DNA from: Armatimonadota bacterium | GTDB taxonomy: Bacteria > Armatimonadota > UBA5829 > DSUL01 | Length of the DNA stretch: 64,000 bases | Direction of reading: 5' to 3' | Assembly (NCBI GenBank): GCA_039811685.1 | Contig: JBDHZC010000007.1 | Coordinates: 96,001-160,000 of the forward strand | Shown here: in pieces, positions 43,732 through 46,670 of the stretch | Position numbering within the stretch: position 1 is the stretch's first letter | How the letters are laid out: the number at the start of each line of letters is the position of its first letter | The notes under the pieces: generated by a model | The model's input: the letters and a program-made list of their open reading frames with translations, nothing else | What the model was told of the DNA's origin: nothing | The model's database searches: none | Program-made: the position numbers and the translations under genes

Positions 43732-45075
43732 ATGTTTGACGGTGTGACAGTCATCGGCGGCGGGCTGGCTGGCAGCGAGGCCGCATGGCAGATAGCCAGA
43801 CGCGGCGTCCCCGTGCGCCTGTGCGAAATGCGACCCGGCAAGCAGACGGGCGCCCATAAGACCGCTAATCTGGCGGAGCTGGTCTGCAGCAACTCTTTCA
43901 AGAGCAACCTGCCCCACACGGCAAGCGGCGAACTCAAGCGAGAGATGCGCAGCCTGGGTTCTATGATTCTCGAGGCCGCTGACGAAGCCTCAGTGCCGGC
44001 TGGCGAAGCTCTGGCGGTTGACCGCGAACTGTTTGCCGCAAGTGTCCAGAGTCGCCTCAACGCCCTTTCCAGCGTGGAGATTATTCGGGAAGAGGCAGAG
44101 CGCATTCCGGACGAAGGGCTGGTGATTGTGGCGACCGGTCCCTTGACGTCTGAAGCGCTCGCCGCAGATGTCGCCCGGATAACAGGGTCCGAGCGGCTAT
44201 TCTTCTACGACGCTGTGGCCCCGATAGTCGAGACGGACTCAATAGACTTCGACCATTGCTGGGAAGGCTCCCGCTACGATAAGGGCGACGGCGCGTATCT
44301 GAACTGCCCACTGAGCAAAGAGCAGTACGACGAGATATATGAAGCGATTTGCTCTGCGGAGCTGGCGCCTGTCCACGATTTCGAAGACCCCAGGTTTTTT
44401 GAAGGGTGCCTGCCGCTTGAGGAGATCGCCCGCCGCGGACCCGAGACCCTTGCGCATGGCCCCTGGAAACCTGTAGGCCTGCGCGATCCGCGCACAGGTG
44501 AGCGCGCGCATGCGGTCGTTCAGCTTCGGCGTGAAAACAGCGCCGGCACCTGTTACAGCCTGGTAGCCTGTCAGAGCCGAATGACCTGGCCTGAGCAGCG
44601 GCGGATATTTGGGATGATTCCCGCTCTGGCTAATGCTTCGTGGCTGAGACTGGGAGTTGTGCACCGGAATACGTATCTGGACTCCCCGCGCCTGCTGGAC
44701 ACAGCGCTGCGCCTGCGCTCCGTCCCGCGCGTGGCCTTTGCCGGGCAGATCACGGGAGTGGAAGGCTATCTGGAGTCTGCGGCCACCGGACTTCTTACGG
44801 GTATCAATGCCGCGCTCGCCCTTCTGTCAGAGGACGAGCCATTCGTCCCGCCCGCTGAGAGCATGCTTGGCGCTCTTGTGCGCTACGTTGCGGAAAGCGA
44901 ATCAGCGGCCTTCGCCCCGATGAACGCCAATTTCGGCATTCTTCCGCCAGTGGGAGGGCCAAAAAGACGCAAAGAAGACCGTCGCCGGATAGCCTGCGAC
45001 CGCGCCCACGATGCGCTCATCAAAGCCGCCGAGGTTCAAGGCGTTTTGTCAGTCCCCACCGCTCCAGGCGTGTGA
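43732..45075 (+). CDS. trmFO: Folate-dependent tRNA (uracil-54)-methyltransferase
   Basis: GGGLAGSEAAWQ, ELVCSNS, FEGCLP.E, HRNTY and AGQITGVEGY.ES motifs. Confidence 0.96.
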   Translation: MFDGVTVIGGGLAGSEAAWQIARRGVPVRLCEMRPGKQTGAHKTANLAELVCSNSFKSNLPHTASGELKREMRSLGSMILEAADEASVPAGEALAVDRELFAASVQSRLNALSSVEIIREEAERIPDEGLVIVATGPLTSEALAADVARITGSERLFFYDAVAPIVETDSIDFDHCWEGSRYDKGDGAYLNCPLSKEQYDEIYEAICSAELAPVHDFEDPRFFEGCLPLEEIARRGPETLAHGPWKPVGLRDPRTGERAHAVVQLRRENSAGTCYSLVACQSRMTWPEQRRIFGMIPALANASWLRLGVVHRNTYLDSPRLLDTALRLRSVPRVAFAGQITGVEGYLESAATGLLTGINAALALLSEDEPFVPPAESMLGALVRYVAESESAAFAPMNANFGILPPVGGPKRRKEDRRRIACDRAHDALIKAAEVQGVLSVPTAPGV

Positions 45076-45199
45076 CCCAGCGCCTGACGGGCGCCGATTG
45101 CCGCTCTTTTTCTCCTTCATCACCCTGCTGTCACTGCTTTCCCGGTATTTTCACCAGTCTTTTCTTGAAAACGAGCAGACGTACGCCTGCCCGCCCGAA

Positions 45200-45216
45200 T
45201 TGGCACGGGATTTGCA
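45200..45216 (+). promoter_or_regulatory. Sigma54 (-24/-12) promoter
   Basis: TTGGCACGGGATTTGCA matches YTGGCACG-N4-TTGCW exactly. Confidence 0.75.
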
Positions 45217-45237
45217 CCATAGGACAGTAGAAAATCA

Positions 45238-45680
45238 GATTCCGAAGCACTTGCCTCCCGCTTGGCGGCTGGCGGCGTCTGGTGACAGGTACCGCGCAGC
45301 CGGGGCGAGGCGTTTGCAGATGACAATTGCAGACGTGACGTTCAGTCGAGTTCGGAAATCAGAAACGTCCGATCTGAAAGATGGGATCGGCCAAGAGCCG
45401 GCAGCACTGCTGTAAATGCAGATGTGCGCCCACTCCTGTTGGGGGAGTGTCAGGCTTCGAAGAATACCCGAGGCAATTTGAGTTGGGCAGCGACGCAACA
45501 CAGCGCGGCTTTTGTGCGCGGTAGTTGGTCGCAAGTGGCAGAGGCGGGCGCTTTTCGTCTAGGGCGGAAACGTTCTGCTTTCTTTACCACGCTGCGCCGC
45601 TTACTTGAATCAGGCTCAGCCTGATCTCAGGTGAGGGTTACGGCGCCGGCTCAGTCGCATTGCACGTCAGCAAGACCGAC
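45238..45680 (+). ncRNA. Candidate large structured RNA or 5' leader (unassigned)
   Basis: Nested stems, long-range pairings and GNRA-type loops found by eye; no convincing ORF. Family unknown. Confidence 0.4.
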
Positions 45681-45697
45681 CCAGGAGTAAAGATAGT

Positions 45698-46528
45698 ATG
45701 AAAACAGGCAAATTGTGCTTGTGGACGGTAGCCCTGGCCGTTGTCACAGGCTTTATGTCGAGTCCGTCTCACGCGGAGCGGACTCTTCCAGGATCGTTCC
45801 TGAAATGGCGCGTCAGCAACTCCGCTGAGTTGGCCAAACAGATTGACGACTCTGCAGAAGTGGCCCGGCGCTATCAGGCCTTCTACAAGCAGGACCCTTC
45901 CGTGATTTCGGAACGCTTCCAGGGACTTCATGTGATGACGCTGTCGAAGCAGTTGACGACTCGCGTTCATTTCATCTCCAAGAGCGGCAAGATCAGCTCC
46001 AAGACCACAACTTTTCTCCCCGGAGCGCTGGTGTTTGCCGACGCCAACAACAAACCGGTGCTTGACTACAAGTGCGGGAATCCTATGAGCTCCGACCTTC
46101 CATCCGTGGAGAAGGTGATGTCAGAGAAGACTCCCGAAGTCAGCACTGACCTGCCAATGAGCGGGCAGGGCGCCGAGGTCCCTGTGGACGTCCAGATGAC
46201 AGAAGTCGCATCCAGCACGGCTGTGCCAAACGCTGAACCGATCTTCACCGAAGTTCTGGCCCAGCCGACGGAAGTCTTTACCGGCGCCGCAACAGTTGGT
46301 CCCGCGACGGCGACTACCGCGACGACGGCTGTTGAAGCCGCTCCGGTGGCCGTGGCGGCTGGTGGAGGTCCGGTTGGCCTTCTGGCTGCTGTCCCGCTGC
46401 TGTTCCTTGGAGGCGGTGGTGGTGGCGGTGGAGGCGGCCCTGTAGTGCCGGAGCCATCGACGATACTGACTCTTGGAGCAAGTCTGAGCGCCTTTGCAGG
46501 GCTGGCGATTCGAAGAAAGCGCCACTGA
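45698..46528 (+). CDS. PEP-CTERM sorting-domain surface protein
   Basis: Signal peptide, Thr/Ala-rich linker, poly-Gly, then VPEPST, a TM helix and RRKRH; AGGAG RBS. Confidence 0.92.
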   Translation: MKTGKLCLWTVALAVVTGFMSSPSHAERTLPGSFLKWRVSNSAELAKQIDDSAEVARRYQAFYKQDPSVISERFQGLHVMTLSKQLTTRVHFISKSGKISSKTTTFLPGALVFADANNKPVLDYKCGNPMSSDLPSVEKVMSEKTPEVSTDLPMSGQGAEVPVDVQMTEVASSTAVPNAEPIFTEVLAQPTEVFTGAATVGPATATTATTAVEAAPVAVAAGGGPVGLLAAVPLLFLGGGGGGGGGGPVVPEPSTILTLGASLSAFAGLAIRRKRH

Positions 46529-46624
46529 TCCAACTTACCACAACGGACGCTCCCCAAACAGGTTCGACCCGGTTTCTACCTCCACCAGAGGCCGGGTCGG
46601 ACTCTGAAAGGTGTGGAAGCGTTG

Positions 46625-46670
46625 AGCGCAGACCAGAAGGGTGACGAGCTTCTGGTCTGCGCTTCTTTTT
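46625..46670 (+). terminator. Intrinsic terminator after the PEP-CTERM gene
   Basis: 15-bp stem AGCGCAGACCAGAAG/CTTCTGGTCTGCGCT followed by TCTTTTT; another long hairpin lies at 46562-46602. Confidence 0.85.

Follow-up and report, generated by a model that had tools for sequence, protein, structure and literature searches.

A large conserved leader between a sigma54 promoter and a PEP-CTERM gene in an Armatimonadota bacterium

The window, the whole stretch of 64,000 nt that was analysed, contains an element of about 470 nt between a trmFO gene and a gene encoding a 276-aa exported protein. The element is best explained as the 5' UTR of a single-gene, sigma54-driven mRNA, which extends over about 45227-46670. 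Judging from comparison with its one close homologue, the leader is under purifying selection, and on the plus strand it folds better than its shuffled controls. As to function, analogy points to a stabilising, translation-setting 5' UTR like the leaders of S-layer messages and far larger than these, a reading to which a probability of about one half is given.

The locus, its promoter and its transcript

The host is a little-studied sludge bacterium of the phylum Armatimonadota with a 3.4-Mb, 97%-complete genome (G000; the window is G000:C7:96001-160000), and the DNA of the window is present in 20 of the 24 listed sludge and wastewater runs, including six RNA runs from four studies. The features of the locus are collected in Table 1. 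The trmFO gene is the upstream neighbour in every family-level homologue inspected (L005-L007 and L034-L036), and after the 276-aa gene the nusA-infB region comes next; neighbours other than trmFO bear names taken from their translations. The terminator-like hairpin downstream of trmFO, found by a consensus scan that returned four sites against 2.5 expected in shuffles, would insulate the leader against trmFO read-through. Its U-tract (45102-45116) is identical in sequence to the seed core of the sRNAs described below, probably by chance since it is absent from the homologue L034. Elsewhere, the genome shows REP-like palindromic intergenic repeats of about 125 nt in tandem arrays (G000:C2:618080-618390, C2:147041-147415, C2:709445-709650, C11:37810-38218, and also in C9 and C4).

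Table 1. Features of the locus and positions of the sRNA genes (window coordinates unless a contig is named)
Feature	Position	Strand	Remarks
trmFO/gid-family gene, 5' of leader	43732..45075	+	GIDA PF01134, E 3.8e-93
Terminator-like hairpin and U-tract, 3' of trmFO	45089..45116	+	consensus scan only
sigma54 -24/-12 box TTGGCACGGGATTTGCA	45200..45216	+	predicted +1 45227
Domain I, closed by UUCCGAA/UUCGGAA, with inner stems and invariant GUGA tetraloop	45240..45357	+	
Core: stem P2, bulge, stem P3	45253..45306	+	10/10 leaders examined, three lineages; P2 45253-56/45303-06, unpaired 9-10-nt bulge, P3 45266-71/45297-302
Linker hairpin with GAAA loop	45369..45390	+	two double changes in L034
Domain II, multibranch, closed by GAGCCGGC/GCCGGCUC	45395..45652	+	window and L034 only
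Invariant UCUUUAC, complementary to 45687-45693	45581..45587	+	candidate anti-RBS pseudoknot
Invariant hairpin directly 5' of Shine-Dalgarno site	45654..45680	+	inside longest identical block
Shine-Dalgarno AGGAG	45683..45687	+	sequence
276-aa exported protein	45698..46528	+	
Two strong hairpins 3' of gene, second followed by U-run	46562..46670	+	probable transcript end
sRNA gene	G000:C1:768620-768731	-	tandem copy near 768570; sRNA loci L059-L098
sRNA gene	C2:618416-618527	-	
sRNA gene	C5:99000-99111	-	
sRNA gene	C3:285425-285533	+	

The sigma54 box shows GG at -24, GC at -12 and the 7-nt TGGCAC-N5-TTGC spacing, and its predicted +1 lies 471 nt 5' of the ATG at 45698. The first-pass annotation had read an exact sigma54 motif with a start near 45227 and had made this depend on an rpoN gene. 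The reading holds: the box is the sole such match within the window (0 in 100 shuffles), rpoN is encoded in the genome (PF04552, E 1.5e-36), and a sigma54 box is located upstream in 26 of the 30 homologous loci fetched, the window counted. The distance from the box to the start codon ranges from 28 to 222 nt (median about 90) in 22 loci outside the family of the window, from 264 to 271 nt in three sister-genus genomes, and is 481 nt in the window. This is more than twice the longest distance in the original survey of proteobacterial PEP-CTERM genes, where the mean is 71 nt and the longest distance 221 nt (Haft et al., 2006; PMC1569441).

Only one true sigma54 activator is encoded in the genome: it shows a receiver, an AAA domain with GSFTGA and a lid, and a stop just past the lid, without a DNA-binding domain. 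Its gene (L101:1023-2222, in G000:C1) is located downstream of a histidine kinase. Against the PrsR model TIGR02915 it reaches 386.1 bits (cut-off 502.6) and covers model positions 1-374 of 445 only. Since it falls below the PrsR cut-off and ends after the lid, it resembles enhancer-independent activators such as FlgR and CtcC. A k-mer scan of 67 promoters gave no shared upstream motif beyond A/T tracts. The activator and the kinase probably form an enhancer-independent system that runs a single regulon of surface proteins and sRNAs.

The gene product shows a signal-peptide-like start, a domain of about 110 aa, a Thr/Ala/Pro/Gly-rich stalk and a PEP-CTERM tail. The tail (residues 250-274) scores 20.4 bits with PF07589, just below the cut-off of 20.7, and can be recognised directly from the letters by its PEP motif, hydrophobic helix and basic end; three exosortases are encoded in the genome. 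Altogether the genome contains about 55-60 PEP-CTERM genes beside these three exosortases, and only about eight of the PEP-CTERM genes have a sigma54-like box upstream. DUF6777 (PF20568) matches 30 of 33 aligned members of the gene family at E <= 0.1 (best 1.8e-11) and leaves the window's own domain unmatched; DUF6777 is also an Atlas lead at 0.77. The gene is assigned to the DUF6777-family PEP-CTERM proteins through the sequences of family members, not through its own copy. A model of the DUF6777-like domain (45776-46111) shows a pLDDT of 95.6. Among solved structures, no match to the domain was found by Foldseek at E <= 0.001, and the best VIA match has a Z of 2.6, which does not establish a new fold. 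Of the 61 genomes searched, 48 contain the gene family, in most cases downstream of a sigma54 box. A paralogue in the same genome, G000:C1:745400-746320(-), shows 38% identity; its sigma54-like box is weaker, and its leader is short and without the core motif. By analogy with pepA of Aquincola, which is RpoN-dependent and required for flocs (PMC9850573), the product is probably a coat or matrix protein.

The RNA evidence consists of metatranscriptome contigs from four of the six RNA runs, one in each of four studies, and such contigs give neither start site nor level. One contig is unbroken over 45246-46563 and a second over 45259-46241; in the two other runs the leader is covered in pieces, from 45372 and 45348. 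A start near the ATG, which the first-pass annotation had allowed for, does not agree with contigs that reach back to 45246. The 5' ends of two contigs fall 19 and 32 nt downstream of the predicted +1, which points weakly towards it. The fragment 45031-45245 is uncovered in all four runs and trmFO is barely covered, a gap that is consistent with the predicted start and by itself proves nothing. No splice joint was found in the four assemblies covering the leader, and a self-splicing or excised element was rejected because these assemblies show no joined exon form (contigs miss rare forms). Since the contigs are continuous from the leader into the gene and unspliced, the element is a 5' leader and not a free-standing gene, and a cis-acting reading fits. 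Of the large cis-regulatory RNA or ncRNA originally proposed, a cis leader with a conserved plus-strand fold stands, whereas a free-standing ncRNA finds no support. In one run, three short A-rich loose ends are located behind 45489, 46062 and 46207, where they are untemplated and on the 3' side of the plus strand; each on a single contig, they hint weakly at what may be decay tails. The longest contig stops at 46563, by the hairpins that probably form the end of the transcript.

Conservation and fold of the leader

The one close homologue found in a metagenome scan, L034, shows 67% protein identity and a 497-nt leader, and the full form of about 470 nt is known from the window and L034 only. 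Of 466 aligned bases of the two leaders, 362 (78%) are identical; the gene itself is identical at 64 of 137 four-fold sites (47%) and at 137 of 276 third positions, and the spacer above the promoter at 73 of 120 positions. It is on these alignments that purifying selection is recognised. Eleven blocks of 12-33 nt are identical, the longest of them (33 nt) at 45648-45680. Indels of 1, 3, 8 and 15 nt, together with the lack of a uORF common to the window and L034, rule out a coding explanation of the leader. Paralogous leaders were not found in the genome by blastn, nhmmer or a domain II model. The DNA search of 60 relatives gave only a 28-nt match in the promoter region; the domain II model gave one 18-bit match (E 0.004), taken as chance, in 149 other genomes of the phylum and no match in 33 other homologous loci, and the domain II pattern gave nothing in viral contigs. 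The sister-genus leader has 250-270 nt, and elsewhere in the class the leader has about 80 nt. A member of this gene family from a different family of the class (L030, in G042) shows a 212-nt leader with a z of -3.3; this leader is independent, with no sequence likeness to that of the window seen.

The plus-strand fold of the window leader has an energy of -203.6 kcal/mol and a z of -4.34, which none of 100 dinucleotide shuffles equals; in a sample of 41 of the 180 ORF-free 470-nt upstream regions of the genome, with 10 shuffles each, one reaches z <= -4.3. The z of the minus strand is -2.47, and L034 shows -3.13 on the plus and -1.46 on the minus strand. Thus the leader beats its shuffled controls, and the preference for the plus strand that had been proposed from G-U pairs and loops is confirmed. 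Among 40 base-redrawn controls of L034 (mean -209.4, sd 7.2), the best equals the energy of L034 itself, -223.3. In the sister lineages the shorter leaders range from z +0.4 to -2.5, little better than shuffles, and many short leaders of class relatives show a 5'-proximal hairpin of unrelated sequence.

The eleven helices named in the first-pass annotation are all present in the window, at or near where they had been placed, and the outer GATTCCGAA/TTCGGAAATC helix consists of a 7-bp core with a bulged extension. Eight of them are kept in L034 and three are not. The kept helices are TTCCGAA, GCCTC (4/5 pairs), CGGCTG, CTG-GTGA-CAG, GAGCCGGC, CACTCC, GCAGCG and CCGATC, the last with two double changes; GCTTCG/CGAGGC and AGGGCG/CGTTCT each lose two of six pairs, and different hairpins stand in the place of the ATCAGGC hairpin. 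GCAGCG/CGCTGC competes with GCGA/UCGC, which has a double change. In domain II, invariant blocks alternate with hairpins of changing sequence. Independent folds of the window and L034 share 43 of their 120 and 141 confident pairs, and the RNAalifold consensus shows a double change in 11 of 138 pairs. Among six segments of 33-54% identity, two fold at p <= 0.02 in both sequences and two in one; of the others, one is marginal, and the A-rich 5' end folds in neither sequence. A strict column test, low in power with two sequences and indel-rich hairpins, counts 15 of 39 changed pairs kept against a null of 14.3 +/- 2.5, and 19 of 38 against 17.3 +/- 2.6, and with a test this weak on two sequences the internal pairing of domain II has the status of a model. 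A curated helix table in which 10 of 10 changed pairs are kept among 91 was drawn after viewing both sequences and is not independent evidence. The covariation looked for thus appears as double changes that do not lift the strict test above its null, and it is suggestive only.

The core in domain I has a wider range than domain II. Its one-sided bulge contains the invariant octamer CCGCUUGG at 45258-45265. In 14 loci the box is followed by CCGCTTGGC, and 10 of these were analysed, with four near-duplicate loci omitted; from most counts L040-L043 were omitted as near-duplicates of rows already included. L035 shows three P2 pairs changed on both sides, and in P3 the window, the sister genus and L035 differ by double changes. 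An unpaired octamer is favoured because L035 keeps P3 but breaks the alternative hairpin CCGC-UUG-GCGG. On an automatic alignment, in which the rows of the window, of L034 and in part of L035 are misaligned, 81.8% of the core cells pair (8/500 shuffles as high) and the covariation score is matched by 43/500 shuffles; core covariation on this alignment is suggestive, not significant. The promoter-plus-octamer pattern is found in 10 of 401 genomes of the phylum: four are the family leaders, and the remaining six stand at the level of the 12 matches of a reversed-pattern control, so outside the family the pattern is at chance level. Three viral matches to it were dismissed as unrelated.

A specific partner is suggested by the 11 identical blocks and by an octamer that is invariant across genera. 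No partner of the octamer was found among tRNAs, 16S rRNA, the leader itself and the sigma54 sRNAs, and no intramolecular site is common to all lineages. That the octamer might be a complement of the tRNA D-arm was considered and rejected, as an exact complement is present in 0 of 49 ARAGORN tRNA calls. The octamer region resembles a complement of 16S rRNA near position 912, which is its best match in 7 of 10 leaders, all of shorter-leader lineages; this match is mostly within shuffle range (0-24/100) and is not the best one for the window. The core of L005-L007 and L036-L039 shows an imperfect complement of about 20 nt to the same 16S region, borderline and far weaker in the window. A complement of the octamer in one sRNA terminator of two sister-genus genomes was also discarded, being absent from the copies of the window genome.

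Ribosome site, small RNAs and possible function

Opening the fragment from the Shine-Dalgarno to the AUG costs, by secondary structure, 1.9 kcal/mol in the window and 2.9 in L034 within the whole leader, and 3.0 and 5.5 kcal/mol with the last 45 nt alone; with the whole leader cheaper in both, the ribosome site is predicted to be nearly open. The invariant UCUUUAC is complementary to the last Shine-Dalgarno base and the spacer (Table 1). Both strands of this pairing are invariant in the window and L034 and show no covariation. The energy needed to free them is about equal to the gain from the pairing if pseudoknot penalties are left aside, and the two states have energies of -215.1 vs -215.2 and of -237.3 vs -236.8 kcal/mol, before loop penalties. 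An equally good anti-RBS helix is found in 6 of 30 shuffled leaders, and none beyond chance in the shorter leaders of the family. Intrinsic attenuation is unlikely, since the window and L034 share no U-run terminator.

The genome also contains sRNA genes of about 80 nt that show a sigma54 promoter, an invariant anti-Shine-Dalgarno seed and a terminator: four copies with the promoter and a tandem fifth. Their exact pattern has matches in 22 of the 53 class genomes and none in the control, and their profile has matches in 40 of the 53. The seed favours PEP-CTERM ribosome sites, with 9 of the top 50 among 2776 gene calls (which are crude and include a few false PEP calls) and a p of 1.4e-7 among strong-SD genes; the three perfect seed complements elsewhere in the genome are all at PEP-CTERM ribosome sites. 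The window gene ranks 404/2776, and its ribosome site is predicted to pair with the sRNA at -15 to -18 kcal/mol; matching the gene only moderately, the sRNA has a weak tie to the leader. Hfq and CsrA genes are present. An escape of sigma54-driven PEP-CTERM genes from the sRNA was considered and rejected (pairing strength of 8 sigma54-preceded PEP-CTERM calls vs 51 others, p 0.47).

As a stabilising 5' UTR, the leader would fold into two closed domains once the sigma54 activator fires. These domains would shield the message from nucleases with the ribosome site left nearly open, so that the mRNA of an abundant surface protein would last long and be translated well, as with the slpA leaders. The short 5' hairpins of class relatives would represent the ancestral state, expanded in one family to about 260 and to about 470-500 nt, and the invariant unpaired bases, the CCGCUUGG bulge foremost, would be tertiary contacts or the site of an RNA-binding protein that tunes decay or translation. 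Several observations stand against this reading: pure protection should keep shape over sequence, yet blocks and octamer are invariant, which suggests a specific partner; for the same protein, a leader of about 80 nt serves in most of the class; and the column test is not above its null, the independent folds share few of their confident pairs, and the shorter sister leaders are near shuffles.

The invariance of both pairing strands and the near-equal energies of the two states are also what would be expected of a sensing switch, in which binding of a ligand or regulator to the core bulge or to domain II would shift P12, and UCUUUAC would then block the Shine-Dalgarno and spacer. Invariant unpaired bases and GNRA loops hint at tertiary structure, and genes of CsrA and Hfq are encoded in the genome. 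The switch is nevertheless unlikely, given a pairing without covariation that a fifth of the shuffles equal, shorter family leaders without such a helix, no Rfam match at E <= 10, and a narrow range with one gene context. Its fuller form, a new class of sensing RNA whose bulge core binds a ligand or protein and whose genus-specific domain II relays this to the RBS pseudoknot, has a small probability. The two self-contained closed domains, and a size and block conservation like those of large ornate ncRNAs, would also suit a dual-output transcript, whose leader would be released by cleavage and remain as a stable RNA of 250-430 nt, a scaffold or trans regulator; this is improbable, as contigs from two studies are unbroken from leader to gene, no terminator is shared, the architecture varies between genera and the genome has no second copy.

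Still less probable is a leader that sets the response of the gene to the co-induced sRNAs by shielding its ribosome site from sRNA-Hfq or presenting it. The same promoter type on the four sRNA genes and their tandem copy, the presence of Hfq, the preference of the seed and its pairing energy here speak for it; the rank of the gene, the equal standing of sigma54-preceded and other PEP-CTERM genes, and the class-wide presence of the sRNA beside a long leader that is limited to one family speak against it. The last reading, without RNA function, takes the leader for a neutral GC-rich expansion or for DNA sites, for example a downstream enhancer at the near-palindrome CCGC-TTG-GCGG. It agrees with the negative strict covariation test and with an 11-mer that is near-palindromic and without a double change of its own. 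It is very improbable and largely refuted by conservation: identity is 78% in the leader vs 47% at four-fold sites, double changes are found in the stems flanking the octamer, and L035 keeps a P3 pairing that is independent of the fifth base and breaks the palindrome. As to DNA sites, the distance from the octamer to the box is 57-58 or 69-71 nt, values that do not differ by a full turn of the helix, and the only true sigma54 activator has no DNA-binding domain.

PEP-CTERM proteins drive sludge flocs, and their known control is transcriptional (sigma54, PrsK/PrsR, Proteobacteria); the locus shows a conserved RNA-level layer on a PEP-CTERM gene in a different phylum. If the leader were a sensing class, it would place a post-transcriptional gate on an enhancer-independent sigma54 circuit, of which the anti-Shine-Dalgarno sRNAs are a further product, and this gate would choose which PEP-CTERM coat protein the cell displays. 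Sensing of a ligand would make it a new riboswitch class, whereas stabilisation only would be a useful, narrower addition. The two stems around the invariant octamer are its testable core, and the natural series of leaders of about 80, 260 and 470 nt on one gene bears on how large RNA structures grow.

Comparison with known systems

At the gathering threshold, Rfam 15 gives 0 matches in the window (riboswitches, T-box, OLE, GOLLD, ROOL and introns included); the leader shows no credible plus-strand match at E <= 10, and five homologous loci show none at E <= 1. The absence of any fitting Rfam family agrees with the first-pass annotation, which could not match the leader to a riboswitch. In the full texts searched, which cover few subscription journals, no paper on a PEP-CTERM leader RNA was found among those listed, nor one that joins an Armatimonad RNA motif, riboswitch or noncoding RNA with PEP-CTERM, and an unnamed motif may lie inside the supplements of large RNA-motif surveys. 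DUF6777 has no occurrence among the full-text matches listed.

With the PEP-CTERM-box promoters of PrsK/PrsR (PMC1569441), the locus shares a single-gene PEP-CTERM operon with a sigma54 box, exosortases (three matches here) and a host from sludge metagenomes. Those boxes are reported from Proteobacteria only and have an upstream enhancer motif (PMC1569441), whereas the window belongs to Armatimonadota and the k-mer scan of 67 promoters gave only A/T tracts. The activator of this genome is below the PrsR model cut-off and without a DNA-binding domain. The first-pass annotation had referred to sigma54 promoters of proteobacterial PEP-CTERM genes, and the present host is not a proteobacterium.

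Translational riboswitches and T-box leaders have in common with the window a long structured leader, an invariant bulge between stems and a possible RBS pairing; the window leader differs in its lack of an Rfam match and of a covarying expression platform and in its range of one family. Riboswitch classes are not known to be so narrow in range or limited to one gene context. T-box leaders have a UGGN bulge and a specifier loop; the bulge of the window ends in UGG, where that of the T-box starts with UGGN, and no specifier loop was seen. The large ornate bacterial ncRNAs OLE, GOLLD, ROOL and the raiA motif resemble the leader in size, multibranch fold and invariant blocks between variable hairpins, and differ from an element that is continuous with a coding region, is known from two full sequences and has no Rfam family.

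The slpA leaders are single long stem-loops of 100-200 nt. The window leader, in contrast, has 471 nt, two multibranch domains, invariant unpaired bases and a sigma54 promoter. With the stabilising 5' UTRs of the slpA and ompA type it shares a structured 5' end, co-transcription with its gene and an open RBS, structure and openness being predicted. In lactobacilli, the half-life reported for slp mRNA is 15 min, and the transcript owes its stability to a stem-loop in the 5' UTR that also keeps the RBS exposed (PMC10221546). The likeness to these slpA mRNAs lies in a structured leader, a single-gene message, an abundant surface protein and a ribosome site that is likewise predicted to be open.
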